DNA of 64,000 nucleotides from an uncultured Pseudomonadales bacterium (GTDB lineage Bacteria; Patescibacteriota; Microgenomatia; UBA1400; PJMF01), in contig CAYWDM010000002.1 of assembly GCA_964457085.1 (NCBI GenBank), positions 203,418 through 267,417 of the forward strand. Reading direction: 5' to 3'. Positions 6,888-56,606 of the stretch are shown one piece after another; position 1 is the first letter of the stretch; each line of letters opens with the position of its first letter. Made by a program: the position numbers and the translations under genes. Below the pieces are notes generated by a model. That model saw only the letters and a list, made by a program, of their open reading frames with translations, was not told where the DNA came from and made no database searches.

Positions 6888-6899
6888 GGTTATAAAACT

Positions 6900-7184: not shown

Positions 7185-7203
7185 CATTTGAAAGTGGATT
7201 AAC

Positions 7204-10814: not shown

Positions 10815-11204
10815 ATGACAGACCCTATTGCAGATATGATCGCCCGCATTAAGAATGCAGTTTTGGCACGCCATGAAACTGTGAGTATTCCTCATTCAGT
10901 TATCAAGCAGTCAATTGCAAAAATTTTGCAAGAGAATGGGTATATCGAGAGTTTTATAGTGACTGATGCTAAGCCTCAGCCAGAGATTATTGTGACCCTT
11001 AAGTATGTTAATAAAGCGCCCGTCATCACTGACATCAAGCGAACATCTAAACCAGGACGCCGCCTTTACAGTGGTTCCGGTTCAGTACCTCGCGTTTTGA
11101 ATGGTTATGGCATGAGTATCTTATCCACCAGTAAGGGTGTGATGAGTAACGCTCAAGCCAGAAAACAAAATGTTGGTGGCGAGCTTATTTGTCAAATTTG
11201 GTAA
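10815..11204 (+). CDS. rpsH: 30S ribosomal protein S8
   Basis: MTDPIADMIARIKNA...GGELICQIW matches S8. Confidence 0.95.
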   Translation: MTDPIADMIARIKNAVLARHETVSIPHSVIKQSIAKILQENGYIESFIVTDAKPQPEIIVTLKYVNKAPVITDIKRTSKPGRRLYSGSGSVPRVLNGYGMSILSTSKGVMSNAQARKQNVGGELICQIW

Positions 11205-11210
11205 ACTTTT

Positions 11211-11750
11211 ATGTCAAAGATCGGCAACAAACCTATTACTCTTCCAGCAAACACTACAGTCGTAGTTGAAAACGGCATGGTGTTGGTGAAGGGACAAAAA
11301 GGCGAGTCACAAGTTTCGCTCCCAGAGCTAATCACTTTGGTCGTTGCTGATGGCTTGGTTAAAGTAACTCGTGCTAATGATGAGAAACAAACCAAATCAC
11401 TGCACGGCTTAGTTCGCAGTTTGGTTTCTAATGCATTAACTGGCGTCACTGTCGGTTACCGCAAAACCCTTAAACTGATTGGTACAGGATATAAAGCTAC
11501 CTCAAAAGGCGTTGGTATCTCGCTCGCACTTGGTTATTCACATCCAATTGATGTGATGCCATTGCCAGGTATTAAAATCACCTTAGAAGGTCAAGATACT
11601 ATTCATGTTGATGGAATTGAAAAAGCAGTAGTGGGTCAGATGGCTGCGGATATCCGCACTCTTCGACCACCTGAGCCATATTTGGGCAAGGGTATTCGCT
11701 ACAGTGATGAAGTAGTTAGAAGAAAGGCTGGTAAAGCTGCAGCCGGCTAA
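11211..11750 (+). CDS. rplF: 50S ribosomal protein L6
   Basis: MSKIGNKPI...GYSHPI...GIRYSDE matches L6. Confidence 0.95.
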   Translation: MSKIGNKPITLPANTTVVVENGMVLVKGQKGESQVSLPELITLVVADGLVKVTRANDEKQTKSLHGLVRSLVSNALTGVTVGYRKTLKLIGTGYKATSKGVGISLALGYSHPIDVMPLPGIKITLEGQDTIHVDGIEKAVVGQMAADIRTLRPPEPYLGKGIRYSDEVVRRKAGKAAAG

Positions 11751-11768
11751 ACCCAGACCAAAATTTGT

Positions 11769-12131
11769 ATGCCAAAAGTAAGTCATAAATTATCAGCCAA
11801 ACAATCTCGCAAACAACGCGTTAGCGGTAAGATGAGCGGAACTGCAGAGCGACCTCGCTTGTCAGTTTTTCGTTCAAATGCTCACGTATTTTTGCAAGCC
11901 ATTGATGATCAGGCTGGTCAAACTCTTGCCAGTGCAAGTAGTTTAGGTAAAAAAGCTGCCAAATCGAAATTAACAAAGACTGAAAGTGCTGTTGCTGTGG
12001 CCAAAACCATGAGTGATGCACTTAAAGCCAAAAAAATATCCGCGGTGGTGTTCGATCGCGGTGCCAGTAGATATCATGGTCGAGTCAAAGCAGTAGCTGA
12101 AGCTCTTCGTGAGTCAGGCGTTAAGGTTTAA
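11769..12131 (+). CDS. rplR: 50S ribosomal protein L18
   Basis: [20 protein letters not shown]...FDRG...YHGRVKA matches L18. Confidence 0.9.
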
Positions 12132-12145
12132 CACATAAGGAATAA

Positions 12146-12922
12146 TTGGTGCAAACACATTCAGGAAAATCACGCATGAACGAACAAGCTAGTAGACGCC
12201 CTAACGCAGGTGAAGAGCGTTCGGACTTTGAGGAGAAAGTAATTTCTATCTCTCGCGTTTCAAAAAAGACCAAAGGTGGTAATAAAGTTGGTTTCTCAGT
12301 GCTGATGGTTGTTGGTGATAAAAAAGGCAAGGTTGGTTTAGGCCTTGGTAAAGCCAATGATGTTGCTTCAGCAATTAAAAAAGGTATCCGCAAAGCTAAA
12401 AAGAAAATGTTGGAAGTTCCTTTGGATGGAACAACCATTCCTTTTGCTATCACTCACAAAAAAGGTGCTGGCAAAGTAATGTTGAAGCCATCTCCAGCTG
12501 GTACCGGTGTTATCGCTGGTGGTCCAGTGCGAGCTGTGGTCGAGGCTGCAGGTATCCGTGATATCTCTGCCAAAATCATGGGTAGTGACAACCAATCTTC
12601 AAGTGTTTACGCTACATTTGCTGCTTTAGAGAAAATTGCTCAAATCGTTGCAGTTAAAAACATTAAACTGCGTTCAATCATTGAGGTTGAAGAGGAAGAC
12701 AAGAAGACACAACAGAAGTTACAAGAAGAAGCCAAGAAGCATGCAGTTGAAAAAGCTGCTGAGACTGCTCCAGTAGCTAAATCAGTCGCTGGAAAAGTTG
12801 CTGCTAAATCAACCGGTGCAGTTGCAGAGAAAACCGCAACTGAAAAGGTTGAAAAACCAGTCAAAAAAGTGATAGCCAAAAAACCAACAGTCAAGAAAAC
12901 AGCAAAAAAAGCTGTTAAATAA
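12146..12922 (+). CDS. rpsE: 30S ribosomal protein S5 with ~85-aa K/A/E-rich C-terminal extension
   Basis: S5 core (RVSKKTKGGNKVGFSVLMVVGD...GTGVIAGG) followed by a histone-like low-complexity tail. No L30 gene follows. Confidence 0.9.
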   Translation: MVQTHSGKSRMNEQASRRPNAGEERSDFEEKVISISRVSKKTKGGNKVGFSVLMVVGDKKGKVGLGLGKANDVASAIKKGIRKAKKKMLEVPLDGTTIPFAITHKKGAGKVMLKPSPAGTGVIAGGPVRAVVEAAGIRDISAKIMGSDNQSSSVYATFAALEKIAQIVAVKNIKLRSIIEVEEEDKKTQQKLQEEAKKHAVEKAAETAPVAKSVAGKVAAKSTGAVAEKTATEKVEKPVKKVIAKKPTVKKTAKKAVK

Positions 12923-12946
12923 TAAGCAGAATTCGTAAAGATCACT

Positions 12947-13384
12947 ATGTCGTTACTACACGCACTTATCAAAAGCACCAAGGTCGGCTCCAAGCGAGTT
13001 GGTCGTGGGTATGGCTCAGGTATTGGTGGCCACACTTCTGGTCGTGGTACCAAAGGTCAGCGTGCACGCGTAGGATCAAAGATTCCATTGTGGTTTGAGG
13101 GTGGCCAATTACCTTTGACCAAGAGATTGCCAATGCTTCGTGGTAAAGCACGTTTTAATGTGCTGAAGCCAACCATTGAATTGACTTTATCCGACTTACA
13201 AGCTTTAAAGATCGACACCATTACCCTTGAGTCACTCAAGCTAAACAAAGTTGTTGATCACAGAGCCAAAAAAGTCAAAATCATCAGTAAAGGTAAGTTG
13301 AGTAAAAAACTGACCATTTCTGGTATCGCTGCTACGCCGATGGCAAAAGCCGCGATCGAAAAAGCTGGTGGTTCTGTTAGCTGA
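12947..13384 (+). CDS. rplO: 50S ribosomal protein L15
   Basis: [26 protein letters not shown] matches L15. Confidence 0.9.
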
Positions 13385-13419
13385 TTTTCCAATCATAGAA
13401 GTTTGGAATAAGGGCAAGC

Positions 13420-14709
13420 GTGCTACAAACAATTGAACGTAAATTGAAGGCAATCCTTGCAAACGAACAGCTCAAACGTAAGCTCGGTTTTACCGCACTT
13501 ATTTTCTTAGTTTATAGACTCCTAGCTCACATCCCAGTTCCAGCTGTTGATATCACACGACTGCAATCTTTATTTTTAGATAATCAATTTTTGAGCCTAT
13601 TAAACGTTTTCTCAGGTGGTACTTTATCGCAATTTTCTTTAGTAGCTGTCGGTATCAATCCATATATTACCGCTTCCATCGTGTTGCAGCTTGGTGGCAT
13701 GGTATTTCCAGCCCTCAAGGAGATGCAAAAAGATGGCGAGAGTGGTCGAGCTAAAATGAATCAGTACACTCGATTATTGAGTGTACCTTTGGCGATTGTG
13801 CAGAGTGTTTCCATTATTACGTTACTCCGTTCTCAGTCCCTAATTACTACATTTGAACCATTACATTTAATTGCTATGGTGATGGCTTTAGTTGCTGGTG
13901 CCATGATTTTGATGTGGCTAGGTGAATTAGTCTCTGAATATGGCGTGGGCAATGGCATCTCAATGGTGCTGTTTGCCGGTATTATCAGTCAGCTTCCTGT
14001 TGCTTTTGCCCACACTTTTAGTGTCATTGATTCTGCACAGTGGATTACACTTATCACTTTTGCAGTGGTGGTGGTTGGCTTGATTGCTATGACCGTGTTC
14101 ATGAATGAAGCAATCCGTAAGATCAATATCCAGCATGCAAAGAGAATGCGTGGTAGTCGATTATATGGTGGCCAAACCACTCACTTGCCAATTAAAGTAA
14201 ATGTAGCTGGGGTGATGCCAATTATCTTTGCGGTTACCATCATGATGGTACCGTCTTTCTTGTCGAAATTCATGCTTGGTTCTACTAACAAGCAGTTGAT
14301 AAGCTTTGGACAGCAGCTGGGAATGGCATTTAGTCAGACTTCTTGGATATACATGGCAGTTTATTTCTTAATTGTGTTTGGTTTTACCTATTTTTCAGCA
14401 TTAATTTTCTTTAACGCTGGCGATATTTCCGAAGAATTGAAGAAGAGTGGTGCTTTTGTGCCGGGTATTAGACCAGGAAGTCCAACCAAAAAATTCTTAG
14501 AATTTGTAGTTACACGAATCACCTTTGCTGGAGCTATCTTTTTAGGATTGCTCGCAATTGTGCCTTCACTAGCTCAAAGTCTGACTGGTGTTGGATCACT
14601 AGCAATCGGTGGTACTAGCGTACTAATCGTGGTCTCGGTGGTATTGGAGACTGCCAAGCAAGTGGATAGTTTACTAGTCGGTCAAAATTACCAAAAATAT
14701 AAATTGTAA
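13420..14709 (+). CDS. secY: preprotein translocase subunit SecY
   Basis: 429-aa 10-TM protein; GINPYITASIVLQL is the SecY signature, and the gene sits between L15 and adk. Confidence 0.95.
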   Translation: MLQTIERKLKAILANEQLKRKLGFTALIFLVYRLLAHIPVPAVDITRLQSLFLDNQFLSLLNVFSGGTLSQFSLVAVGINPYITASIVLQLGGMVFPALKEMQKDGESGRAKMNQYTRLLSVPLAIVQSVSIITLLRSQSLITTFEPLHLIAMVMALVAGAMILMWLGELVSEYGVGNGISMVLFAGIISQLPVAFAHTFSVIDSAQWITLITFAVVVVGLIAMTVFMNEAIRKINIQHAKRMRGSRLYGGQTTHLPIKVNVAGVMPIIFAVTIMMVPSFLSKFMLGSTNKQLISFGQQLGMAFSQTSWIYMAVYFLIVFGFTYFSALIFFNAGDISEELKKSGAFVPGIRPGSPTKKFLEFVVTRITFAGAIFLGLLAIVPSLAQSLTGVGSLAIGGTSVLIVVSVVLETAKQVDSLLVGQNYQKYKL

Positions 14710-14730
14710 CAGCACGTTTGAGGGATATTC

Positions 14731-15267
14731 ATGAAAATTATTCTGATTGGAATCCAAGGCGCAGGAAAATCAACTCAGGGAAATATGCTCTCCCAAGAAC
14801 TTGACATTCCTTACCTCTCATCTGGCCATATTTTTCGAATGATGACCAAAGAGAAGACCGAGACAGGTCGATGGTTGAAGGAGACGCTTAACTCAGGTGC
14901 ACTCGTACCAGATGAAGAAGCGGTTAAAATCGTAATGGAATACCTCCAGAAACCTGAATATGACAAGGGGTATATTTTGGATGGTTTCCCACGAACTATT
15001 GCTCAAGCAAAAATCTTAAGTGATGGCACTGAGAAAGCTGTATTTATCAATGTTTCGGACAAAGAAGCACTGTGGCGTATTTCTGGTCGCACGAGTGACC
15101 GCGAAGATGAATCGCTGCAGGCAATTCGCAAACGTATTGGTCTCTTTCATGAGCTGACTGAGCAAGTAATTGAATACTATCGAGATAAAGGTAGTCTTAT
15201 CCAAGTTAATGGTGAAGAGGATGTTCAAGAAGTCTTCGGACAGATCATGAAGCATCTTCGTGACTAA
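14731..15267 (+). CDS. adk: adenylate kinase (short form, no zinc LID)
   Basis: P-loop GIQGAGKSTQ and LDGFPRT motifs in a 178-aa protein. Confidence 0.9.
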   Translation: MKIILIGIQGAGKSTQGNMLSQELDIPYLSSGHIFRMMTKEKTETGRWLKETLNSGALVPDEEAVKIVMEYLQKPEYDKGYILDGFPRTIAQAKILSDGTEKAVFINVSDKEALWRISGRTSDREDESLQAIRKRIGLFHELTEQVIEYYRDKGSLIQVNGEEDVQEVFGQIMKHLRD

Positions 15268-15292
15268 TCGTCTTTTGTTTGTATTTTAGAGA

Positions 15293-15322
15293 CCACCGGC
15301 TAAAAACCGGTGGTTTTTTGTT
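15293..15322 (+). terminator. rho-independent terminator after adk
   Basis: The hairpin accaccggc-taaaaa-ccggtggt is followed by tttttg. Confidence 0.7.
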
Positions 15323-15569
15323 ATTGACTTTTTTTGACTCGAAAGTCTCTAAATGATATACTATAGGATGTTTGTAATTACCTTCCATCAGATGATGGAG
15401 TGGGTGAAAGCAGACAATTCGCTCTTTGAAAATTTGCTAATTAAACCTGAAAATTTCATGAAACATGTCGAGGTGACGGCGCTGGCCATTTGACCAGAAT
15501 GGTGAGCGCCGTTACTTCAAGGCAAATCTAATTTTTGTGGCGGATTGAAATCTGTCACTTTGGAGAAAC

Positions 15570-16121
15570 ATGAACCGAATACTTGTTTTGCTCTCGCTTT
15601 TGCTTGTCGCCTGCACAGCAGTGACACCGTCCACCCCAAAGGCGACTATGCCGGTTGCCACTGAGACTCCGCTTGTTGCTACCGAAACTCCAGCAGCTGA
15701 GTCAACTGAAGACGCGTTCGCTGCCACTACGATTGTGGAGTGGACTCGAATTGGCGAAGAACCGAAACGCTTTACGATCCGCTCCCAAGGTCCGTTTGCG
15801 CAGATGCAAATAGACGAAGGCGAGTTGGATGGTACAGTTGTCTGCGGTGATACAGTGTTTGAGCTTGGTAACGAGCATTTACACACAATCACCGCCAAGC
15901 AATGCCCCGAACTCCTCACTACAGGAGCTGTGGTCCAGTTTATAACCACAGCTCGTTGGTATTTTCCCGCTGGAGTTGGTGGCACTTTGACTTTCGCCGA
16001 AGGTAATAACGGCGTTTGGACAGAGGTAAACGACCTCTGGGTTTGGAGGGCAGTCATTAAATTGACACCTGACGATTCGGGAATTCCGCCTAAGATCGAA
16101 ATCGAGAGGATGGTCGGCTAA
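15570..16121 (+). CDS. predicted lipoprotein, paralog 1 (inserted in r-protein cluster)
   Basis: Signal peptide with lipobox LLVAC and a T/P/E-rich linker. It shares the C-terminal pattern CG.TV...KQ.CPEL...WRA...L.P...P.I.IE with the next ORF. Confidence 0.6.
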   Translation: MNRILVLLSLLLVACTAVTPSTPKATMPVATETPLVATETPAAESTEDAFAATTIVEWTRIGEEPKRFTIRSQGPFAQMQIDEGELDGTVVCGDTVFELGNEHLHTITAKQCPELLTTGAVVQFITTARWYFPAGVGGTLTFAEGNNGVWTEVNDLWVWRAVIKLTPDDSGIPPKIEIERMVG

Positions 16122-16474
16122 TTGCCGACAAGGGGGGTTGATTGGCAAAAAACTTAAGGAGCAACATGTCCGCTTGGGTTAAACCTGGCGGACATTTGCG
16201 TTTAAGATCATTTTTACACCGATACATACTTGATATAGTTTGACATATTAATCCCCAGATATTAGACTATAGGCTAGTTTGGCTTTGCTGCTGCATATTT
16301 TTGTGTGGTTAGCGGTGTCAAGCTATCGCTCTTTGAAAAATTGTGATTTTATTGTCTTCATTGGGTTAATGGTGCTTGCTCACGCAATTTATTTTATTAG
16401 TTGTTTGGGTTAGCACCATTCAACCATTTTTTTTTATTCTTAGGTCGCATTTGTGATCTAAGACTGGAGGCAAT

Positions 16475-16990
16475 ATGCAAGCAGGAAAAAAGAATAAGTT
16501 CGAACGACACCACTGGATTTTGCTTTTGGTGGTGACGCTAATCGTGTTGTTGCTGTTGTTTTTTGGTAACTACACACCGGCACAGGTGCCAGCTAAGGAT
16601 GAGCTGATTTTACAGTACGCAGTGATGCGTGATGGAGTAAGACACTTCCCTTTTGTTGCTGAGGGGGTATATCCCGACATTTCTGTTGGGGTAAATGGAG
16701 TTGAGGTAAAAGTAATGTGCGGCCAAACCGTACATTACTTACCAAGTCCTCCAGTTAATGCCATTGGGAAGCAGGCTTGTCCAGAGTTGTTTTCAGCTCA
16801 GGGCGTCGCCATCATCCTAGTCAATTCCTCAGACGAGCACAACGAAATAGTGCCTGTCGATGCCGAGATGCAAATCTTGGAAGGTGGGGAATGGACTCAC
16901 GAATATGGTGGTGTAGTCGAGGTCTGGCGAGCGATCGTCAGGCTGGAGCCGCATGCTGGGGCTAAATACCCCGAAATCACAATCGAATAA
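16475..16990 (+). CDS. secreted/membrane-anchored protein, paralog 2
   Basis: N-terminal TM anchor and the same conserved Cys pair and C-terminal motif as paralog 1 (VMCGQTVHYL...KQACPELF...WRAIVRLEP...YPEITIE). Confidence 0.6.
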   Translation: MQAGKKNKFERHHWILLLVVTLIVLLLLFFGNYTPAQVPAKDELILQYAVMRDGVRHFPFVAEGVYPDISVGVNGVEVKVMCGQTVHYLPSPPVNAIGKQACPELFSAQGVAIILVNSSDEHNEIVPVDAEMQILEGGEWTHEYGGVVEVWRAIVRLEPHAGAKYPEITIE

Positions 16991-16992
16991 GA

Positions 16993-17036
16993 GCACTATG
17001 CTCGCCAGGGTAAAAACCTGGCGAGCATTTTGCGTT
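16993..17036 (+). terminator. rho-independent terminator after paralog 2
   Basis: The hairpin atgctcgccagg-gtaaaaa-cctggcgagcat is followed by a T-run. Confidence 0.7.
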
Positions 17037-17097
17037 TTAGTGCCAGAACACTTAAAAAGGTACTTTAAACCGAATAGAAAGCAAAACATGATCTGGC

Positions 17098-17126
17098 CTG
17101 ACTTTTTGAGGTTTTTTTGGTATAAT
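17098..17126 (+). promoter_or_regulatory. putative sigma70 promoter with extended -10 (TGgTATAAT) for infA transcription unit
   Basis: TATAAT at 17121-17126 preceded by TGg and a weak -35 (cTGACt) 17 nt upstream. It lies about 40 nt upstream of the infA start and just downstream of a terminator. Confidence 0.5.
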
Positions 17127-17168
17127 TGCCAGATCGAATGAGCCTTTTGTCATCGATGTGGAAAAAAT

Positions 17169-17483
17169 ATGGGTAAAGTTCAAGATCACAAGCGTTCGGC
17201 GAAAGCCAAACGACAAGTTGATACCACCGAGCAAAAAGCAGATCGTTCTGATCGTTTTGAGGTGGTTGGCTTGATCGAAGAATGTTTACCAAACACCATG
17301 TTCCGCGTGAAAGTAGTCGAGAGCGAAGTGGAACAGATGAAAGATCGGACATTACTTGGAAGCTTAGCAGGAAAAATGCGCCTGTTTAGAATTCGAGTTT
17401 TGCCTGGTGACATGGTTAAAGGTTATGTTTCTAAATATGACCTCACCAAGTGCAAAATCACCTATCGCACAATGAAGCGGTAA
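17169..17483 (+). CDS. infA: translation initiation factor IF-1 (with ~30-aa basic N-terminal extension)
   Basis: S1-like core EVVGLIEECLPNTMFRVKV...GKMR...RVLPGDMV matches IF-1. Confidence 0.9.
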   Translation: MGKVQDHKRSAKAKRQVDTTEQKADRSDRFEVVGLIEECLPNTMFRVKVVESEVEQMKDRTLLGSLAGKMRLFRIRVLPGDMVKGYVSKYDLTKCKITYRTMKR

Positions 17484-17600
17484 GTGTTTTTGAGAGATTG
17501 ACGGTGACGTCAGTACAAAATCAGTATGAATTAGCAAGCATTATCGGATAAACTGCATCTTTAATTTTTCGAGAAGTTGCGGTATATTTCAAGTTCGTCT

Positions 17601-17717
17601 ATGAAAGTGCGAGCATCATTAAAGAAAATCTGTAAAGAGTGTAAATTTATTAAACGCAAAGGAGTGCTGCGGGTGATTTGTCCTGTCAATCCTAAGCACA
17701 AGCAGCGTCAAGGGTAA
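17601..17717 (+). CDS. rpmJ: 50S ribosomal protein L36
   Basis: Found manually because it is below the ORF-track size cutoff: [38 protein letters not shown] is a C-C-C-H zinc ribbon typical of L36. Confidence 0.85.
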
Positions 17718-17722
17718 TTTGT

Positions 17723-18127
17723 ATGCCACGTATCGCCGGTATCGATATTCCAGATCATAAAAAAATTGCGTTTTCACTACGCTATGTATATGGTGTGGGT
17801 CCAAAAGTCTCAGCCGATATTCTTGAGAAGACTCGAGTCAATCCAGATAAGCGTTGTAGAGATTTAACTACTGATGAAATCAACAAAATTCAAGCAGCTT
17901 TAGAGAAGTATATGGTTGAGGGTGACCTTCGCCGAGCTGTGAGTGACAATATTAACCGCTTAAAGCGCGTTAAGGCGTATCGCGGTATTCGACACATGAT
18001 GGGTTTACCAGTTCGAGGTCAGCGAACTCGCTCAAACGCCCGTACCAAACGTGGCGGTCGTCGAACAATTGGTGCAATGAGTAAAGAATTAGCAACTAAG
18101 CTGGATTCAGCCAAATCTGCTAAATAA
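17723..18127 (+). CDS. rpsM: 30S ribosomal protein S13
   Basis: MPRIAGIDIP...RGQRTRSNARTKRG matches S13. Confidence 0.95.
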   Translation: MPRIAGIDIPDHKKIAFSLRYVYGVGPKVSADILEKTRVNPDKRCRDLTTDEINKIQAALEKYMVEGDLRRAVSDNINRLKRVKAYRGIRHMMGLPVRGQRTRSNARTKRGGRRTIGAMSKELATKLDSAKSAK

Positions 18128-18149
18128 GAAGTAAATCGAAGATACAAAT

Positions 18150-18545
18150 ATGGCAATCGTCAAGAAAGAGACTACAAAAAAGAAAATCACCCGAGTGGTG
18201 CCAAAGGGACGACTATACGTAGCCGCCACTTTTAACAACACTATCATCAGTATTACTGATGAAAAAGGTGGGGTATTGTGCTGGTCATCCACAGGTGTGG
18301 CTGGTTTTACTGGTTCACGTAAATCTACTCCTTACGCAGCCACCATCACAGTTGAGAATGTTTTGAATAAAGCTAAAACATACGGTATGAGTCAGGTTGA
18401 CGTTTTCATTAAGGGTCCAGGTCCAGGTCGTGATGTGGCACTTCGAGTGCTGCGTGCGCAGGGTATTAGAGTCGGCATGATTGCTGACATTACTCCCATT
18501 CCTCACAATGGTACTAGACCACGGAAAGCTAAACACAACAGGTAA
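18150..18545 (+). CDS. rpsK: 30S ribosomal protein S11
   Basis: ATFNNTIISITDEKGGVLCWSSTG...TPIPHNG matches S11. Confidence 0.95.
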   Translation: MAIVKKETTKKKITRVVPKGRLYVAATFNNTIISITDEKGGVLCWSSTGVAGFTGSRKSTPYAATITVENVLNKAKTYGMSQVDVFIKGPGPGRDVALRVLRAQGIRVGMIADITPIPHNGTRPRKAKHNR

Positions 18546-25250: not shown

Positions 25251-25337
25251 GGAAGCGTCGCATAGTGGCCTAGTGCAGCGGGTTGCTAACCCGCGGTATC
25301 GAAAGATGCCTCGTGGGTTCGAATCCCTCCGCTTCCG
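25251..25337 (+). tRNA. tRNA-Ser (anticodon GCU), class II with long variable arm; CCA not encoded
   Basis: Hand-folded: acceptor GGAAGCG/CGCTTCC, 3-bp D stem, anticodon stem GCGGG/CCCGC with loop TTGCTAA, an 18-nt variable arm, and T arm GTGGG-TTCGAAT-CCCTC (one U-U mismatch). Confidence 0.7.
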
Positions 25338-25470
25338 CACCGTTTTTCAATCCTGCGAAGCAGGTATTGGAAGACGGTATGAATTGGATGAGAAAGCAAG
25401 GTACCTCGCCAAGCGAGTACTTTGATATAAGTCATAATCGAGCCTGGAAAGGTAAATCCCTCCGCTTCCG

Positions 25471-25509
25471 CTGTATATCTAAACTGCCGTTGGCAGCTTA
25501 GATATACAG
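25471..25509. repeat. near-perfect 18-bp-stem palindrome
   Basis: ctgtatatctaaactgcc-gtt-ggcagcttagatatacag has a single mismatch. Confidence 0.6.
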
Positions 25510-25529
25510 TTGAGTTAGCTAAGTAATTC

Positions 25530-25605
25530 TTTGATCCTGCCGGCAAGAGCAGAGCTCCTGCCTAATGCCGCGAAGCGGCCTCCGCTTCCGCACTCAATTT
25601 TTTTG
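25530..25605 (+). other. element A: conserved tRNA-adjacent RNA-like motif plus terminator
   Basis: CCTGCCGGCAAG...CTGCCTAATGCC-GCGAAGCGG-CCTCCGCTTCCGCAC (the last 15 nt match the tRNA 3' end), followed by a T-run. It is related to elements B and C at 56057 and 56607. Confidence 0.5.
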
Positions 25606-25742
25606 TCAAAACATTCCAATTTTGTGTATTTAGACTGTATTTGTTGTGGTTGGTAAACAAAAATACTTGCTTGTAAAACAATGGTACCTTTGTCTGACCA
25701 GATGTTTGACAGACGAACAGAATATGCCCACAATGGGTGTAG

Positions 25743-31677: not shown

Positions 31678-33105
31678 TTAGGGAGTAGCTGTTTCGGCGA
31701 TAATATCGTCGATTATCTTGTCTACAGAAACGGCACTGCTGGCCATTCCATCAAGATTCAGAGAAATTCGATGTTGCAAGGCGGGGCGAATGAAAGCTTG
31801 AATATCTTCTATTGAAACCGTGGTCCTATTATCCAGCAATGCACGTGCTTTCGCTCCACGTATGATGGCATGTTCACCACGTACTGAAGCTCCAATTTCG
31901 ACATATTTTTGTACTGAGGCAACTGTTGATTTTTTTGGGTGAGTGTTGATTAAAATTTTGCCAGCATATTCAATTAACTTTGATGAAACTGCGATGCTTT
32001 CAATAGTTTTTTGAATAGCTAGTACGTCTTTTACATTGGCTAGTTGTTGGTGTTTTTCATTGTTTTCTCCAACTAATGTTTGTCCAATTATTTGGTTTAA
32101 TACTGATAACTCTGGCAAGTCCAAATGTACTATGAAACCAAATCTGTCCAATTGAGCTTCAGGTAAGGGATATGTCCCAACACTACCATGATTGTTTTGA
32201 GTAGCAATTACGAAAAAAGGCCTGGGTAGGGAGCGCATCCTACCATTTGTTACTTGCCTCTCTTCCATTGCTTCGAGTAGTGCAGCTTGTGTTTTAGGAG
32301 TGGCTCGATTAATCTCGTCAACTAATACGATATTTGCAAATATTGGTCCTTTTTTAAACTCATCGGCATTTTTAGTGCCAGCAGCTCCATGCATTGAAAA
32401 ACCGAGTATGTCTGTGGCCATTAGATCTGGGGTACATTGTATGCGAGTAGATTTTAAGCCTAATATTTTTCCTAATGATTTAGCTAGTTTTGTCTTACCC
32501 AGTCCTGAATTACTCTCTAGAAGTACGTGCCCTCCAGTAAATAAGGCGATGAGAACTAAACGTACTGCCTCCTCCTGACCGATTAGTATTTCATTCAATT
32601 TCTTTTCGACAGTTGCTATTTTTTGAGTTGCTTCTTTGTAGTTAAGCGGTGCCTCATTATTTGACCCAGTTTCCCACTCTTTAAATAAATCAAGGTATGA
32701 TTGCAAAAGCGAAAGTAACTGAGTTAGTTTATCTACAACCTCTGAAGTATCTTCTGTTTTTTTAGGAAATGTGGATTCCAGTTTTCCATCAAAGACTTCT
32801 GCTAACTCAGCAGTATTAATAAGCTCATCAATCTTGTCGATAGCTGTATGAATTATTTTTTCATATAACGCTATTTTTCTTTTGTCTCGTGCAACTTCAA
32901 TGTTACCAATACCTTTGGTTGCATCTTCATACAGATGCAGTGCTGACGCAAAGGTACCACCATCATTGGTGAATAGTTTTTCCTCAAGTACTTCAATCAG
33001 GTTCATAACACTTTGTGCACCTTCAACTTGCAAAGAGTTTATATCTATTGCAGCCTCAATTTGCTGTATTTGCTGTTCTACCTCTGGTCTCATATACAGT
33101 ATCAT
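31678..33105 (-). CDS. MoxR-family AAA+ ATPase with ~170-aa N-terminal coiled-coil extension
   Basis: Walker A NSGLGKTKLAKSLG, RIQCTPDLMATDILG, and Walker B/sensor VLVDEINRATPKTQAALLEAMEERQVT. Confidence 0.8.
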   Translation of the reverse strand: MILYMRPEVEQQIQQIEAAIDINSLQVEGAQSVMNLIEVLEEKLFTNDGGTFASALHLYEDATKGIGNIEVARDKRKIALYEKIIHTAIDKIDELINTAELAEVFDGKLESTFPKKTEDTSEVVDKLTQLLSLLQSYLDLFKEWETGSNNEAPLNYKEATQKIATVEKKLNEILIGQEEAVRLVLIALFTGGHVLLESNSGLGKTKLAKSLGKILGLKSTRIQCTPDLMATDILGFSMHGAAGTKNADEFKKGPIFANIVLVDEINRATPKTQAALLEAMEERQVTNGRMRSLPRPFFVIATQNNHGSVGTYPLPEAQLDRFGFIVHLDLPELSVLNQIIGQTLVGENNEKHQQLANVKDVLAIQKTIESIAVSSKLIEYAGKILINTHPKKSTVASVQKYVEIGASVRGEHAIIRGAKARALLDNRTTVSIEDIQAFIRPALQHRISLNLDGMASSAVSVDKIIDDIIAETATP

Positions 33106-33186
33106 CGTAGCATTTTAAAAATTGAAAAACTACCAATAATCGACAGCAAGTGGTGGTTTGATTGGGATAATCTAGCTATACTGTTG

Positions 33187-36100
33187 ATGATAATGACCGA
33201 AAAAATTAGTATATTTGTTGGCAATAAACTGGCCGAGTTGGGTCTAAAACCACCTAGTTTAACTGATGGATTACTACTTGCTGATGATCCCATCCTGCAT
33301 CGTCATGTCAAACAGCGGATTCGACATAGGTTGGAAGAGAGCGGACAACCACTAAGATCATCGGAAGTTGATGCTGTATTGTCTAATGAAACCTCCATTT
33401 ACTTGATCGAAGAGGTCGAGTTGGAGAGTGTTGACTTTCTAATTGCAAGTGAAAAACTACACAAGCCAGTTTTTGAAAAGATACTGAGGAACATAGCACA
33501 TTTAGACTTTAGAAGTTTTGCGAGTGCACAACAGAGTGAAATCTCTCTTTATGATCCAGAGGTGATTACACCTCAAGTTTCTTGGGCGGTGGAACAAATT
33601 TTTCAAAATTTACCTGGTTTCTTTGAGTCGTTTGAAATAATGATGCAGCATGATCAGGCTTTTGAAGAAGAGCAAACCGATATTGTTCGCAATATCTTCA
33701 TTATTGGATATCTGCATGGCTTTTTAAGCGAGGAAAATCAGAATTTAACCACAGCCAAAGTATTTTTAGCTCATGCTATTAGAAAAAGTAACTCTGACGA
33801 AGAAAAACTAAAGCCATATCCTGCTTTCTTAAGGAGAATAGTGGATAAAGATGAATCAGCTCAGGTTTCACCAAGACTTGAACATCTAAAAAATCATTGG
33901 CTACAGCAACTTGCTCGTCGTTGGTTGTTGTTGTCCAGAACAGATGAAGCTTCAGCTGACACCTTAAGTCAATCGACCAGACAACAGTTGGATGAGCATT
34001 TACCAAAAGACAGAAGACCCGCTGAGAATAGTGCTGTTGCGAGAAAAATGGATTCATTGAATAAAACGAGAACAACATTTCAAGGTGAAGTTGGTAGCTC
34101 CAACGGAAATGCTGATCAGGGATTTAATGAGAGTGCACAAATTAGAGAAGAACTGCAACTTACGGTTGATGTTGCCCAACAGCAACAGTCGACAATTATG
34201 CACATGAGAGATATCTTGCGTCTCTATCAGGGAAATAACCAAGAAGTTTTTCATAATGGTCATCAAAATACAGAAAAATGGTTGCCATTTAAAGTTGCTG
34301 CAGAACCCATTTTGCAAAAGTTAGTTTTAGGTTTTGGTTTGCTTAACGATTCAAAAAATGATGATGCCAGATTTGATTCTGCCGTGGACACAATTGTTAA
34401 ATCAATGATTCAGAGTTTAGCAAATTCTGGTGATGCCCAACACATCAGAGGGATGTTTGGGGCAGATTTTTTTAATTTGGCTCAAGTTGAACAGCTTTGC
34501 TTACTGTCATTTACAGCTCTTTCTTTTATCAATAGGGAGACCAGTACATCTAAGTTGGCAATTCAAATTTTAGATAGAACGGTTATTCCTCGTCTCAATC
34601 AGTATTTCGATTTAGATCGTTACAAAGAGCTATCAACCGAAAATGTACCAGCCTTCAATTTTTCTACTTATGATCAGCGAGTATATGAAGATAAATCTCA
34701 GCACGCAAAATCAGTACTTGGAGATCTGCAGCCAGCTGATGAATTAGTGGGTGTTGATAGTGCTGTTTTTCGGCAGTTGCTTGAAAGAAATAAACAACAA
34801 TTATCAGGTGTCTCCAAGATTTATTCTTTATTTGCTTCACTAACCAGTGAAAACTGGGGAGAACATACGAAGCCGCATACAATAATCTTAGGCGAGATTT
34901 TTGTGATGACGGCTTTTATTTCTGGTCATCTCAACTTTAATTTATCTGAGAGTTTATTAACTGAATCATTAAAAACAATTTTCTCTGAAGACCCATATCT
35001 CTTTTTATTGAAAATAGCCCCAATACCACTAACACTGGCAAGTGGAGCTCTATTGATGGGTGATAAGGCTAGGAAAGACTTTAAGAAATTATTATTATCT
35101 TCTTCAGAATTAAAAAAAGATCTAAAGAAATTTTCTAAAGGTGGATGGAGGCAGATTGCGATGATGCTCATGTTAAGCACATATGCTTTGAGTTCAACCT
35201 TTCCTTTATGGCAAAACCAAGCTGATGAACTGTGGGATTCTGCCAAGGATCGTTGGGAAGAGCTGTTCGATGATGATGAGGTAGTAGAAGGAGAAGATTC
35301 TACTGATGGTATGAGAAATTTTTGGGAGGATAGAAATCCTGAGGCAGTTGATGCCAATGATTTGCTGGACATAGAGAAAGTTGACTGGGGAGAAATTGCA
35401 ATTGAAGAAGACGTGTATGGTAAAGATCCTAATGCCCCAATAGGTTTTATAAACACTTATGTTGTTTCTCCTATAGTAGCTGAGTCTGAGGATCAACAAT
35501 ATAACACTGAGTCAAACATGACTGATTTTGACGCCTTATCTAATGCAGACGATATTATCGTAAATGCGAGTGGCTATGTAATTAGAAATGACGAGATTGA
35601 ATTTACACTTGCAAATGGCGATACCTACATTCAACCTGCTGCAGGTGCAGATTTTGTTGTTAAAAATGGCATAGTTAATGGTCATAATTGGTTTGCAAGA
35701 TTCTTAGAAACAGGCAAATATCTTGACAAAATTATTGTTGTGTCAAAACCTGACAGCCCGAATAATTTTTTCTCCAATGGAGAATTGTTTAATAGATATG
35801 ATTATCCTGACCGATATGTAGCTTCTCTTACTGAGAGTCATGATGAATATTTTGTGGTATATAAAACAAATCCAGATGCTGCAAACGAATTGAATCGATA
35901 TAAGTTGCGACTTGATGAAAATTTAGTCTTTTGGCAAACTCATGCTGCAGATCGAGAAATTGCCCTGACAGTTTTAGAAAAAGAGAATCCAGCAGCAGCA
36001 GCTCTTTATGCACAAATGTTAGCAGAACAGAACCTATTCTGGGCAAATTATGATCCTCAGAATAATCATGAAATTGACTATCTTAAAATGATTGATAAAC

Positions 36101-37389
36101 AGATAACTGCGTATACTCTTTTTGTAAAAACTAACCATGTATACAGTCTTAAATACAAGCCAAAAACGAATTATGCAGAGAAGTATCCTGATGTCGGCGT
36201 TATGCTCGATGTGATGGCACTTAAAAAAGGTGGCTATTATTGTTTAACTGCACATTTGGCTGCACAGGAATGGTTTCTTTCTCTAGGAGTTCCGATGGAT
36301 GGTTTGTATGGATATCATATATATGATGATGCAGGCATGGCTAGATCACGCATTGGTCATGTTCAGACTGGTATTTATGGAGCAGTTCATGATTTTACTC
36401 CTTCCACTCCAAATCCTGGAGAAGATTTACGAGCATTAGATTTCAATAAAAATACTGCTGTGAGTGGACAATTAGATACTCAGGCTGTTGAGCAACCCAC
36501 TATTGTCGATTTATTACAAAAATTTGCAAACGTTGATAATTTATCACTACTTATTCTTTTGTTATCGACAGTGGGAGTTGGATATTCCATTAAATTGGGA
36601 ATACAACAAGCAATGGGTAAAACCACCAAAGATGACTTTGATACAGTAGAACAAGTTAAAAATATTTTGCCCGATACTGAACTTGCATTGAGAGGTTTAA
36701 CCTCGGCATTACTGCAATTATTAAATTTGATTGCAGAAGTTGATCCATCATTTCCAGATAGTGAGGATGGCAGTAAAGACCGAAGGCAGATACTTTCGCA
36801 AATTGTTACGGAGAGTTTGATTTTGGCAACCAAACCCTCAAACACGCAAGCTGAAATATCTAGCAGCATGTCAATGAATCCCGAGGTACTTGCATTGCTG
36901 CAGTTAGTGGGATTAGGTAATGGTACATTGAGTGAGAATGCTCGAGAGCAAGTGGAAAGTTTATGGCAAAAACTCAATAGCAATCAAAGACAGACGAAAC
37001 AGCTACTACAAGAAGTTCTTGGATTACTGGATAGCATATCAACCAACTTCGGAAAAGCATCAGAGATCAAAAGGAAACTGGTGGGTAAGTCAGTGAGAAA
37101 ATTACAAAAGCAACTGATGAGAACGAGAAAAAAAGAAAATAGAATATATGGCATGTATGGTGCATTTTTAGAAAAATCACACTTGGCAAAAGATGAGAAA
37201 ATCAATGAACTTAGAAAATCAATTACTGCAGATTATTTAGCCATTCATCATCAATTAGAGCAACAAAGTAATGAGTTACAACAACTAAACACGCAAGCAA
37301 AACTATTACCTACAAATGTAAAAAGTCTCAAAAAAGTTTTGAGGTTTATGCTTAACCATAGTACAGCACACGACATAGCTCATGAATAA
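33187..37389 (+). CDS. giant hypothetical protein (1401 aa), MoxR-associated
   Basis: The track ORF begins at 33013, inside the divergent MoxR gene. The start is revised to ATG 33187 (MIMTEKISIF), the first ATG after the MoxR start. No recognisable catalytic motifs. One hydrophobic segment (LSLLILLLSTVGVGY) and a C-terminal coiled coil. Confidence 0.55.
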   Translation: MIMTEKISIFVGNKLAELGLKPPSLTDGLLLADDPILHRHVKQRIRHRLEESGQPLRSSEVDAVLSNETSIYLIEEVELESVDFLIASEKLHKPVFEKILRNIAHLDFRSFASAQQSEISLYDPEVITPQVSWAVEQIFQNLPGFFESFEIMMQHDQAFEEEQTDIVRNIFIIGYLHGFLSEENQNLTTAKVFLAHAIRKSNSDEEKLKPYPAFLRRIVDKDESAQVSPRLEHLKNHWLQQLARRWLLLSRTDEASADTLSQSTRQQLDEHLPKDRRPAENSAVARKMDSLNKTRTTFQGEVGSSNGNADQGFNESAQIREELQLTVDVAQQQQSTIMHMRDILRLYQGNNQEVFHNGHQNTEKWLPFKVAAEPILQKLVLGFGLLNDSKNDDARFDSAVDTIVKSMIQSLANSGDAQHIRGMFGADFFNLAQVEQLCLLSFTALSFINRETSTSKLAIQILDRTVIPRLNQYFDLDRYKELSTENVPAFNFSTYDQRVYEDKSQHAKSVLGDLQPADELVGVDSAVFRQLLERNKQQLSGVSKIYSLFASLTSENWGEHTKPHTIILGEIFVMTAFISGHLNFNLSESLLTESLKTIFSEDPYLFLLKIAPIPLTLASGALLMGDKARKDFKKLLLSSSELKKDLKKFSKGGWRQIAMMLMLSTYALSSTFPLWQNQADELWDSAKDRWEELFDDDEVVEGEDSTDGMRNFWEDRNPEAVDANDLLDIEKVDWGEIAIEEDVYGKDPNAPIGFINTYVVSPIVAESEDQQYNTESNMTDFDALSNADDIIVNASGYVIRNDEIEFTLANGDTYIQPAAGADFVVKNGIVNGHNWFARFLETGKYLDKIIVVSKPDSPNNFFSNGELFNRYDYPDRYVASLTESHDEYFVVYKTNPDAANELNRYKLRLDENLVFWQTHAADREIALTVLEKENPAAAALYAQMLAEQNLFWANYDPQNNHEIDYLKMIDKQITAYTLFVKTNHVYSLKYKPKTNYAEKYPDVGVMLDVMALKKGGYYCLTAHLAAQEWFLSLGVPMDGLYGYHIYDDAGMARSRIGHVQTGIYGAVHDFTPSTPNPGEDLRALDFNKNTAVSGQLDTQAVEQPTIVDLLQKFANVDNLSLLILLLSTVGVGYSIKLGIQQAMGKTTKDDFDTVEQVKNILPDTELALRGLTSALLQLLNLIAEVDPSFPDSEDGSKDRRQILSQIVTESLILATKPSNTQAEISSSMSMNPEVLALLQLVGLGNGTLSENAREQVESLWQKLNSNQRQTKQLLQEVLGLLDSISTNFGKASEIKRKLVGKSVRKLQKQLMRTRKKENRIYGMYGAFLEKSHLAKDEKINELRKSITADYLAIHHQLEQQSNELQQLNTQAKLLPTNVKSLKKVLRFMLNHSTAHDIAHE

Positions 37390-40300
37390 TCAGGAATTTT
37401 TATCAGTTGAACCAGAAGGTAAGCAAATAGATACTGCAGTGGATGCAGCAGCCTCTGAGTCTGATATGTTGGAGCTTAAAATTGCTGAAATTTTGGGTCA
37501 ATCCTCTGTAGATTTTATTGAAAAGACTGTTTCTGAACATTTGGGAGATGGTTATGAAAGCAATGACTTAGGACTTGTTGAAAAAATTAATTTAATTTTA
37601 ATCTTAGCTTCAAAAAAGAAAATAGTTGTCTCATCTGGATTACTACGAGCTGTAAAGAGTGTCACTACTATTTTGCCGAATGGTCAAATTGATATCGAGT
37701 ATCTAATCCATCTAAAAGGTGAAAAAAGAAAACACTTATTTCAAGTTATAAGTTCATTGATTCTATTGCTTGGATTAAGTTTCGGTGTCGGAAATGAATT
37801 AGTTGGTCGGATTCAAAATACGGAGAATCGAAATAAAGTTGAGTTGTCAGCAAGTGCGGTTGATGATGAGAATGCTAAGGCATTGGAGTCACGAACTAAA
37901 TTTGAAAGACAATTTAGTAGTGATCTGGAGACTGTAGTGGCAGAGATGGGATGGCAAGACTTCTTAGGTGAATATACCAAAGAAAATAATGAGAGTGTGT
38001 GGTCATCAGAGGAGGTTTTCCAGTTGTTGCGCACACAAGAGCCACGGTATTGGGGTTATTACATCATCGCTTATCCAAATACTTTTGTCGAAGCTGTTGA
38101 TACTTCACAAGTATCACAAGTTGAGTTTATGAGTTCGTGTGGTGATGTCCGCTTTTTCAGTTATTTACAGACTCAGATGGGTGGTGACGTTACTTGGCTT
38201 GATTTGTGGAGTGCTGATGAATTGTTCGAAACACTTAGAATGACAAACCCAAATTGGGGAAAAATAGTGGCAAATAATCAGGTGTTATTTGTTGGTGTTT
38301 TGGATAGAGAAGATTTGACACCACTGGTTCACATGCTAGCTCCTACTGCTAATTCTGCAGATATGCACTATTTCTTGAGAGATTACGAAAACGACTGGGA
38401 TCAGACATGGTCAAGGCGAGAACTTTTAGATGCAATGAAGGCAGACGGTAGTGTCAGCTGGGGGTTCTATGTAAAGCGCTACATGCACCTTTTTGCGAGC
38501 GACATAACCGAAGAAGAATTGTCGGAAGTTATAGAGGATATTTCATTTAGCAGTTCAGGTCTTTACCCTAGCACAAATGACTTAGCATTTTTTTCTGACT
38601 ACTATAAATTGCAGCTTTATGAGGTCGTTGATCCTGCAGCATTTGTACGACTTATTGAAACACATTTTAGCAAAGAAATTGCAGCTCAAATTCTTGCTAA
38701 TTATCCAGAGTTAAATCAATTAGAGCAAAGTAACATTGAGCGATTATTTGAAACTGAAGCAATTAATTATGTATTAGATAACTATGCTCAGTGGGAGTCT
38801 GTATATCCAATAGTAGATATCATGACCTTTTTACGGGACAGTGACCAGAAATATCATTACGCTTTAATTGTGCCGCATCCAGAGTTGTTTCAAGAAATAT
38901 CATTCACTGATGATGAGGTTGTCTTACTTGCTTTTCGAAACAATTTTATGGAAACAACTGGTGAAAAAAAGAAATTTTTTCACAACTATCAGGGACAATT
39001 TGGCTGGGAAAATCAAATTCCTGTGGAGAGAATGCTGAAACTTGGAAGAAGTAAACCAGGTGACGGTATGTATACTGCCGCTCTTTATTTTCCAGAAATA
39101 TTTTTACCTCATTTCACGGATGAGGATATGTATCAATTAGTGCTTTCAAATTCTATTGATTTAGAAGAAGTGGATGTTTTACATTCCACAAATCCAATCT
39201 GGAAACCTTTTACCACTGTAGAGCGTAGGCACACGATGCTTGAATTAGCAAAAAATGATACTGAGCAAGATTGGGAAGAGTTGGTGGCTTCTAGATTCTA
39301 TTTTTTTGAGGATATTTTGACTTTTGATGAAGCAAAAGATATTTTGAGTAAGTATCACTCTAGTACCATTAGAAATAGTCCGCTTTGGCAGAACAACGTA
39401 ACTCCTGAGTGGGAATATTCTTTTTTCAAAGAATCAAATGAAGATATTTTTATTCATTTAATTGCCAATGATCCTGTCTATTTTAGTGAGCAACTTACAG
39501 AAGGTGATAAGTTGTTGGTGTTAAAAAATAAACCAGAGGTAATATTAGATAATTATCTTTTTTGGCAAAAGTTTTTTTCACCAGAATTTATCTTAGACTA
39601 TTTTTACAGTGGTCAGAGTGCGGAGAATTATGGTTATTTTGTTTTAAGAAACAAACACATATTTGGGCATGTTTTTTATAACAGTGGATATGATTTAAAA
39701 AACTCAATTATGCATGGTGGATTAGATACCCTGTTTGATACTAACTATGATACCGACCAATATTACTATGAGGAGTGGTCCGAGTTCGTAAGCATTGAAG
39801 AATTGTTTTACATACTGGAAGGATTTGAAGATGGCAGAGTGAAGATACTTACCAGACCAAACTTATTCTTTGAATTTGTTGAGTTTTCTGACCTAAACCA
39901 GTTTGTGCAAACTGAACATTGCATTTCAGCATTACTAGGTAGCTATGACGATTGGCAGGAGTTATGGAGCTTTGCAGATATCTATGAGGCTGTTAAGGCT
40001 ACTGATCCAAGTTATTCGGCATTCGAACTATTTAGCAGTGATTATGCCGAAGATTTTATTAAATTGACTAGCCATGATGATTTACAATTTTTGATCAGGT
40101 CATATCCTGATGACCTCTCGTATATATTTGGGAGTAACTTGGAAATACTCTTGAAAAAATGGACTGCTGAAGAAATATTAACGGCTCTAAAACAAGAACA
40201 TCCAGATACCTGGGGTGCATTCGTAACGGATGGAATTGTACATTTTGATGCGTTATTATCGCAAAGTGATTTAGAATCGCTGATCGCTCATGGGGCAAAT

Positions 40301-40594
40301 CCGGCTGGATTAATGGAGACTGGTTTGTGGGAGGTAGACGAAGTCTTTGATGTCTATAAAAATAATTTCCCTGAAAAGTGGGGAGAAATTATTCTTACTA
40401 ATAGTGAAATTTTCATGGAGGAGGTTATTCGAAGAGACGTGTCATTACAACAGCTACTTGAGTTTACAGACATTACTATCGCATACGAATATACATACTA
40501 CTGGAGAGATGTCTGGTCAGAAATTGAGATTGAAGACGCTCTGCATGCAGTGTATGGAGATGCACTTCCAGTATATGATGAGGCAGCTGGTTAA
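37382..40594 (+). CDS. giant hypothetical protein (1070 aa) built from ~12-14 degenerate ~75-aa tandem repeats
   Basis: The start overlaps the upstream stop (ATGAATAA). Repeats follow the pattern [D/E]E[V/L]F..L....P..WG..[I/V]...P.LF.E........L (e.g. EEVFQLLRTQEPRYWGYYIIAYPNTFVEAV, DELFETLRMTNPNWGKIVANNQVLFVGV, EEILTALKQEHPDTWGAFVTDGIVHFDAL). The protein is acidic and aromatic-rich. Confidence 0.6.
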   Translation: MNNQEFLSVEPEGKQIDTAVDAAASESDMLELKIAEILGQSSVDFIEKTVSEHLGDGYESNDLGLVEKINLILILASKKKIVVSSGLLRAVKSVTTILPNGQIDIEYLIHLKGEKRKHLFQVISSLILLLGLSFGVGNELVGRIQNTENRNKVELSASAVDDENAKALESRTKFERQFSSDLETVVAEMGWQDFLGEYTKENNESVWSSEEVFQLLRTQEPRYWGYYIIAYPNTFVEAVDTSQVSQVEFMSSCGDVRFFSYLQTQMGGDVTWLDLWSADELFETLRMTNPNWGKIVANNQVLFVGVLDREDLTPLVHMLAPTANSADMHYFLRDYENDWDQTWSRRELLDAMKADGSVSWGFYVKRYMHLFASDITEEELSEVIEDISFSSSGLYPSTNDLAFFSDYYKLQLYEVVDPAAFVRLIETHFSKEIAAQILANYPELNQLEQSNIERLFETEAINYVLDNYAQWESVYPIVDIMTFLRDSDQKYHYALIVPHPELFQEISFTDDEVVLLAFRNNFMETTGEKKKFFHNYQGQFGWENQIPVERMLKLGRSKPGDGMYTAALYFPEIFLPHFTDEDMYQLVLSNSIDLEEVDVLHSTNPIWKPFTTVERRHTMLELAKNDTEQDWEELVASRFYFFEDILTFDEAKDILSKYHSSTIRNSPLWQNNVTPEWEYSFFKESNEDIFIHLIANDPVYFSEQLTEGDKLLVLKNKPEVILDNYLFWQKFFSPEFILDYFYSGQSAENYGYFVLRNKHIFGHVFYNSGYDLKNSIMHGGLDTLFDTNYDTDQYYYEEWSEFVSIEELFYILEGFEDGRVKILTRPNLFFEFVEFSDLNQFVQTEHCISALLGSYDDWQELWSFADIYEAVKATDPSYSAFELFSSDYAEDFIKLTSHDDLQFLIRSYPDDLSYIFGSNLEILLKKWTAEEILTALKQEHPDTWGAFVTDGIVHFDALLSQSDLESLIAHGANPAGLMETGLWEVDEVFDVYKNNFPEKWGEIILTNSEIFMEEVIRRDVSLQQLLEFTDITIAYEYTYYWRDVWSEIEIEDALHAVYGDALPVYDEAAG

Positions 40595-56015: not shown

Positions 56016-56027
56016 GATAAAAACTAA

Positions 56028-56052: not shown

Positions 56053-56056
56053 ATCT

Positions 56057-56600: not shown

Positions 56601-56606
56601 GTACTT

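Follow-up and report, generated by a model that had tools for sequence, protein, structure and literature searches.

The 64,000-nucleotide window analysed here (contig CAYWDM010000002.1, positions 203,418 to 267,417, from an uncultured Patescibacteria genome) carries a serine tRNA gene whose 3′ end is repeated downstream, around a long palindrome and a structured element. This locus raises the question of whether the repeats are the footprint of site-specific integration at a tRNA gene or whether the element is a cis-acting RNA serving the sensor-kinase genes that follow it. Alignment reveals that the element belongs to one repeated non-coding module of ~110–150 bp, present as copies A, B and C in the window and as copy D in a distant Patescibacteria metagenome-assembled genome (MAG). 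The module copies most likely mark sites of repeated foreign-DNA insertion rather than a regulator of neighbouring genes. There is about an even chance that the units are, more specifically, attachment-site modules of small integrase-less islets, inserted site-specifically at tRNA-Ser 3′ ends and accumulating there in tandem.

The module has one order of parts, common to 4/4 copies: a core copied from the tRNA 3′ end, a hairpin (H0), a linker, a box1–H1–box2 block, a second hairpin (H2) and a second core. H0 begins 0–1 nt past the discriminator base, spans 15–18 bp and differs in sequence in every copy. Box1 (TCCTGCCGGCAAG) leads into stem H1 (GGCA-A-GCG / CGC-C-TGCC), whose variable tip ranges from 3 to 33 nt, and H1 in turn leads into box2 (CTGCCTAATGCC), which is followed by TAAT, by the triloop hairpin H2 of 4–6 bp and by the second core. 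The linker of B, C and D contains ATGGAAC, complementary to TCCG of the tRNA, with the arms of the inverted repeat extended to 17–25 nt. Because the H0 inverted repeat of these three copies enters the last tRNA bases (TCCGCC... with ...GATGGA), the ATGGAAC box can be read as the complement of the tRNA end; the extension covers 56009–56062 in B, 56562–56612 in C and 1714–1761 of contig L001 in D, and is absent from unit A. The sequence of the second core depends on which tRNA is adjacent, not on the element family: it reads CGCTTCC in A, CCTCTCC in B, GCCTCCGCCA in D and a decayed version in C. Across the four sequences, the cells of H1 and H2 are paired in 92% of cases, against 17–42% when the partners are slid; H1 shows one compensatory pair and one G–U, and H2 one compensatory pair (G–C to A–T). 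The H1/H2 structure is plausible, not proven, because shuffles reach equal covariation in 66/500 trials.

At the first tRNA locus, these parts are arranged as follows.

25251–25338, + strand: tRNA-Ser(GCU), tRNA1 (ARAGORN; Rfam tRNA, 51 bits)
25322–25340, + strand: core copy 1, the last 17–19 nt of tRNA1
25339–25454, + strand: segment X, 116 bp between tRNA1 and core copy 2, without the boxes and starting with a box1-like TTCAATCCTGCGAAGC
25455–25471, + strand: core copy 2, left boundary of unit A, an exact 17-nt copy of the tRNA1 3′ end, AATCCCTCCGCTTCCGC
25471–25509, + strand: palindrome H0(A), with a 17–18 bp stem and GTT loop, in the same position as the terminator hairpins of B, C and D
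25535–25579, + strand: conserved body of unit A, with box1 at 25535–25547, H1 at 25542–25562 (GGCA-A-GAGC/GCTC-C-TGCC), box2 at 25558–25569 and H2 at 25567–25579 (GCCGC-GAA-GCGGC)
25579–25593, + strand: core copy 3, right boundary of unit A, an exact 15-nt copy of the tRNA1 3′ end plus trailer bases AC, CCTCCGCTTCCGCAC

Most of what the sequence-only reading had described at this locus is recovered. The tRNA-Ser(GCU) gene is confirmed, with its end corrected by ARAGORN and Rfam from 25337 to 25338. The reported double recurrence of its 3′ end holds as two exact copies, but the second had been placed 2 nt too far right. The 13-mer CCTCCGCTTCCGC occurs three times, against 0.33 expected from shuffles. 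The long palindrome is the top inverted repeat of the 64 kb (18-nt arms, 94% complementarity, 3-nt loop), and both boxes ascribed to element A are present there in exact form. The terminator assigned to element A is not supported: the terminator scan returns none, and the T-run at 25598–25604 sits 9 nt past the nearest stem. Segment X, which holds two triloop hairpins (GAA/CAA), may be an unrelated or decayed insert. As a decayed module it was set aside, its local alignment with module B being marginal (z=2.2, p ~0.04), and it is not recovered by nhmmer with the hidden Markov model (HMM) of the module.

The second tRNA locus carries two further units and the remnant of a third.

55928–56015, + strand: second tRNA-Ser, anticodon ACU, CCA encoded (tRNA2; ARAGORN, Rfam), whose 3′ end is the left core of unit B
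56014–56057, + strand: H0(B), an 18-bp hairpin, terminator-like on both strands, whose inverted repeat enters the tRNA end
56056–56157, + strand: body of unit B, with TGATGGAAC, a small hairpin at 56067–56079, box1 at 56085–56097, H1 at 56092–56142, box2 at 56138–56149 and H2 at 56147–56157
56157–56170, + strand: tail of unit B, CCAGCCTCTCCGCA, 12/14 nt identical to the tRNA2 3′ end and exact over 56160–56169 (GCCTCTCCGC)
56552–56568, + strand: degenerate left core of unit C, ACCCAGGCACTCCGCCA, resembling the tRNA2 3′ part minus the T-loop
56567–56607, + strand: H0(C), a 17-bp hairpin, terminator-like on both strands
56606–56704, + strand: body and decayed tail of unit C, with a box1 variant at 56635–56647, H1 at 56642–56680, box2 at 56676–56687, H2 at 56685–56695 and the tail TGCCTCTC at 56697–56704
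59861–59916, + strand: start of a third, most decayed unit, with a core-like stretch (TTTTTCGCCA), a hairpin of the form CCCGC-N4-GCGGG and then CTCTAATAAAAC, directly beside the enolase stop codon

The recurrence of the boxes beside this second tRNA had been seen from the sequence, but the two positions given for it, 56057 and 56607, are the starts of the units and not the boxes, which lie at the coordinates listed above. It had been missed that B and C, too, end in copies of their own tRNA 3′ end. Collectively, the flanking repeats identical to an intact tRNA 3′ end are exact over 17 and 15 nt in A, exact over 10 nt in B (12/14) and 8–10 nt long in D, and tRNA1, tRNA2 and the tRNA beside copy D all have perfect acceptor stems and normal tRNA scores. 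At the tRNA2 locus, core identity to the tRNA falls with distance, from 14/14 through 12/14 (B tail), 11/14 (C left core) and ~9/14 by eye (C tail) to the remnant at enolase. Such decay, rising with distance from tRNA2, fits successive insertions at a live tRNA end. The remnant at 59861–59916 is proposed to be the original tRNA2 3′ end with its terminator; hairpins of the CCCGC-N4-GCGGG type number three in the whole window, where 0 are expected.

The DNA between the cores measures ~110–150 bp in the units themselves, ~0.5 kb for B plus the open reading frame (ORF) ORF69, and ~3.3 kb beyond. The tRNA2 cores thereby bracket orphan genes and a restriction-modification system, as listed here.

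56253–56462, + strand: ORF69, an orphan gene between the B tail and the left core of C
56781–59833, no strand assigned: cargo-like stretch between the C tail and the third remnant
56781–57509, + strand: orphan ORF242
57691–58443, − strand: HinP1I-type restriction enzyme
58433–59437, − strand: C5 cytosine methylase
59567–59833, − strand: small ORF

Evidence from other genomes bears on mobility. The exact two-box pattern, in scans that tolerate little divergence, gives one true match among the genomes of 185,579 species, namely copy D in the distant MAG (PAT3), so that the boxes are conserved outside the window genome. Copy D lies directly after a tRNA-Ser(GCU) gene and ends in the tail GCCTCCGCCA, a repeat of 8–10 nt. 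The enolases of the window organism and PAT3 are only 60% identical, and B shares with D identical box stretches of 17 and 15 nt; identical boxes in genomes this distant would fit either horizontal spread or strong constraint. In the Joint Genome Institute (JGI) metagenomes the same pattern yields no true copy, its single match lying inside clpP and being judged a chance occurrence, and in the IMG/VR viral contigs it yields no match. A relaxed pattern returns 17 matches in viral contigs, all without the CCTGCC prefix and without a tRNA-like tail after box2, and these were dismissed as chance. The module HMM finds no further copy in the 210 kb searched.

Comparison with syntenic loci, which the sequence-only reading had proposed, was carried out for copy D and places the module at the tRNA-proximal edge of strain-variable DNA. 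The SurE–tRNA-Ser(GCU) synteny is kept in the relatives of PAT3. Genome L021, of the same species, has an identical SurE and an identical tRNA, with 95% nucleotide identity over 6.2 kb extending to 5 nt past the tRNA. From there on, L021 has metabolic genes over 7.5 kb (10982–18511), whereas the MAG carries 942 bp consisting of H0, D, the tail and ORF254 (L001, reverse strand, 6250–7191), and homology resumes at the next shared gene, of the glyoxalase family. Five further relatives (SurE 73–87% identical) retain a near-identical tRNA without D and have five different downstream genes, all six genomes diverging 0–6 nt past the discriminator. Because it is absent from the conspecific genome and from these five relatives at the same tRNA, the module is dispensable and strain-specific, and is located at a recombination hot spot. 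This presence/absence polymorphism concerns copy D and not A, B or C, the only other assemblies of the window organism being identical. Homologues of ArgG at 80–82% identity, whose names suggest that the window organism is a Microgenomates-like Patescibacterium, are not followed by a tRNA-Ser gene.

The tail of D matches the mature tRNA with CCA, while its own tRNA gene lacks CCA, which had raised an RNA-mediated origin of the tail. This origin is not needed: the tRNA gene of one relative encodes CCA, giving exactly GCCTCCGCCA, and because of this the D tail can be a displaced DNA copy. A T-arm-like string picked out by eye near the right junction in L021 was considered as a tRNA remnant and rejected, as no tRNA model matches it.

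In the islet reading, a core in the incoming element would recombine with the identical core in the tRNA gene, which comprises the T-stem 3′ strand, the acceptor strand and the discriminator. The tRNA would thereby be kept intact and a second core left behind, and repeated insertions at the functional tRNA would stack units in tandem, the newest beside the tRNA. H0 would supply a terminator to the rebuilt tRNA gene, a plausible role given the terminator scores of this hairpin in B and C. The boxes that contain CCTGCC, together with H1 and H2 beside the distal core, may serve as recognition sites for the recombinase and accessory proteins, and the recombinase itself would act in trans, encoded at another place in the genome or by an autonomous relative.

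The integration footprint suspected from the sequence alone stands in part: the module is bracketed by 3′-end copies of the adjacent tRNA, adjoins variable DNA and is absent in relatives, but the concern that the intervening DNA is short persists, and several further points weigh against the islet reading. Pfam scans of the ORFs flanking both tRNAs, of the other large ORFs of the window (outside the presumed ribosomal-protein block and 45427–47714) and of 8 kb around D reveal no integrase, recombinase, transposase or reverse transcriptase. Searches with blastn against phage and plasmid collections return nothing, and no phage, plasmid or viral contig is found to carry a related attP. Units of ~110–150 bp are too small for plausible double-stranded circles, and their similar composition and size in all four copies imply that they are not random deletion remnants. 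Additionally, three different acceptor strands cannot be served by one attP, which means that the core of each copy must have been fitted to the tRNA beside it. Nor do integrase arm sites typically contain hairpins whose pairing survives sequence change, as it does entirely in H0 and through one compensatory pair in each of H1 and H2. Finally, with just four known copies, nothing here is statistically strong.

Two candidates for a recombination protein were rejected. ORF69 was considered as an AlpA/Xis-like excisionase from a GFP...W...EV motif seen by eye; it has no match in Pfam (even at E<=10), PHROG or PADLOC, and its single-sequence AlphaFold2 model, although confident (predicted local distance difference test score, pLDDT, 85.7), matches no fold in the PDB. 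ORF242, considered as a hidden recombinase, has no domain match and just two distant relatives among 1.84 billion representative proteins.

In a more far-reaching alternative, the module would be an active structure-dependent recombination site, working as a folded single strand or as RNA, that makes the tRNA-Ser genes of Patescibacteria a gene-capture platform; small cassettes, each composed of the module and one to few genes, would be inserted serially at the tRNA 3′ end by a recombinase acting in trans. Such a platform would be a functional analogue of integron attC/attI arrays, with a tRNA end as its base. In a related version, the ~130-nt unit would itself be a miniature mobile element. 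This alternative is considered unlikely.

A small RNA gene, or a mobile 5′ leader acting on tRNA-Ser or on the expression of the following gene, is an improbable explanation, and its two forms read the module in opposite directions. On the + strand, the RNA would run from a TAAAT-like sequence just before box1 through H1, UAAU and H2 to a tail mimicking the tRNA acceptor 3′ strand; on the − strand, its 5′ end would be complementary to the tRNA-Ser 3′ end and its 3′ end would lie at the bidirectional H0 terminator. The conserved single-stranded linkers (AATCC, TAAT) beside stems that vary yet keep pairing are what such an RNA would display, as are the excess of H1/H2 pairing over slid partners, the covariation of the tail with the adjacent tRNA and the terminator scores of H0 in B and C on both strands. 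The strand signals conflict, however: the H1 A–C mismatch of the + strand becomes a G–U pair on the − strand in 4/4 copies, and H0(A) likewise favours the − strand, whereas the + strand is favoured by the G–U pairs that H0 has in B and C. No promoter-like site for the module is found on either strand. The folding check suggested by the sequence-only reading is divided, the folding energy being modestly better than that of shuffles in A (z=−1.9) and D (z=−2.3) but no better in B (z=0.31) and C (z=−0.07). The covariation matched by shuffles and the dispensability of the module in a conspecific strain and close relatives also argue against an RNA gene. In Rfam 15, only the two tRNAs reach the gathering score and nothing credible covers the module at E<=10; partial resemblances to the twister (CUGCC-AAU-GCCGG) and hammerhead (CUGAUG) cores, considered as hints of a known RNA family, have no Rfam match.

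The narrower proposal, that the element is a cis-acting RNA for the downstream sensor-kinase genes, is rejected on three observations. Orthologous dCache-HAMP/PAS-kinase operons at 49% (L009, L010) and 37% (L011, L012) identity have neither the tRNA nor the module upstream, and on this ground the module was rejected as leader of the sensor operon. The four module copies precede unrelated genes; in particular, ORF242 and ORF254 are unrelated, and a conserved downstream gene was rejected accordingly. The stretch from element A to the sensor gene contains a promoter-like site (TTGACA-17-CACAAT, 25706–25734). Past the sensor operon, at 33013–40594, a pair of neighbouring ORFs of very large size (1458 and 1070 aa) has no Pfam match and occupies a stretch of lower GC content (0.34–0.38).

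A miniature non-autonomous transposable element targeting tRNA-Ser 3′ ends, with the cores as target-site duplications, would account for a defined unit that recurs at four places in two distant genomes with a similar size and composition, for flanking repeats derived from the local target and for the presence/absence polymorphism, but is quite improbable. Terminal inverted repeats are lacking between the unit ends in A, B and D, and C has one weak 9-nt pair. The repeat length varies (13–17, 10–14 and 8–10 nt), unlike the fixed duplications made by DDE transposases. Single-strand HUH transposons (IS200/IS605), for their part, use subterminal hairpins and make no target duplication, which also counts against this explanation. 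No transposase is found among the scanned ORFs nearby, and there are four copies only, none away from a tRNA-Ser end.

Local duplication and decay without mobility, by unequal crossing-over or slippage of a tRNA 3′ half with its terminator so that the element is a decayed pseudo-tRNA half, is very unlikely: it draws on the left core of C, which looks like the 3′ part of tRNA2 lacking its T-loop, on a loose likeness of box1 to tRNA2 where the anticodon stem meets the variable arm (CTGCCG...GCAAG) and on the clear paralogy of B and C (repeat family D8; linkers z=13.6), but the module body shows no significant alignment with tRNA 3′ halves (z<2, p>=0.05, 12 comparisons), D is absent from its conspecific, and independent local decay cannot give identical boxes at two different tRNAs and in a genome with a 60% identical enolase.

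Several features of tRNA2 stand apart from these arguments. It is 82% identical to tRNA1 across the first 61 nt and encodes CCA, which tRNA1 does not; its anticodon loop reads TTACTAA, and a serine tRNA with A34 is unusual in bacteria. The gene may be a paralogue that travels on mobile DNA or was captured together with it. The genome is represented in samples SRR12261223 and SRR12261225. A second, independent assembly of it (Logan contig L003) ends inside tRNA2 at 55956, and this break likely results from the stretch common to both tRNA-Ser genes. The GC skew changes sign near 57 kb, together with the switch in gene orientation at the tRNA2 islets.

Patescibacteria have very small genomes, and their mobile elements and routes of gene gain are, as far as we know, poorly characterised. 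If the islet reading is right, tRNA-Ser genes would be hot spots at which these bacteria gain orphan genes and defence systems, and the recognisable non-coding module, as a marker of such sites, would help in searching metagenomes for islets and for the missing recombinase. A module acting through its hairpins and not through its sequence would represent a previously undescribed type of compact recombination site; as mere scar tissue it would be unremarkable. To our knowledge, no tRNA-targeted system of this kind has been described in Patescibacteria, and literature searches found none. The module, conserved and undescribed, most likely marks tRNA-Ser integration sites in Patescibacteria.

Among known systems, casposons target the tRNA 3′ end, leave flanking duplications of ~14–15 bp and can occur in tandem; they differ in having terminal inverted repeats and Cas1 and polymerase genes, neither of which is found here. 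Cis-mobilizable elements (CIMEs), in their described form, are kilobase-sized decay products of identifiable integrative and conjugative elements (ICEs) or integrative and mobilizable elements (IMEs). CIMEs keep attL and attR without recombination and transfer genes, which they have lost or never possessed, and their tandem accretion has been described (PMC5704250). The units resemble them in having cores on both sides, with no recombination or transfer genes found between, and differ in that scans of genomes, metagenomes, viral contigs, phages and plasmids, which tolerate little divergence, found no larger parent element, and in the miniature size and four-copy uniformity of the unit.

The islands and prophages of P4-type tyrosine integrases at tRNA 3′ ends (e.g. 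the selC, leuX, pheV and asn tRNAs) are comparable in several respects. Flanking repeats of 13–17 bp of the tRNA 3′ end are their usual signature, and the direct repeats of 13–17 nt with an intact tRNA, the variable DNA starting exactly at the tRNA end, the tandem cores and the cargo of orphan genes and restriction-modification genes are shared. The window differs from them in that no integrase or excisionase gene is found, in the short DNA between the cores and in the conserved hairpin-rich non-coding module beside the core. With integron cassette arrays the comparison is one of analogy only: no IntI gene is seen (no search was made for the core motifs of attC), a tRNA 3′ end serves as the fixed site, and the cores are direct copies of that end and not inverted core sites. 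The likeness lies in the arrangement, in which one or few promoter-poor genes alternate with a structured module resembling a recombination site, pairing is conserved above sequence, the length of the stem tip varies, and the newest unit lies nearest the fixed site.

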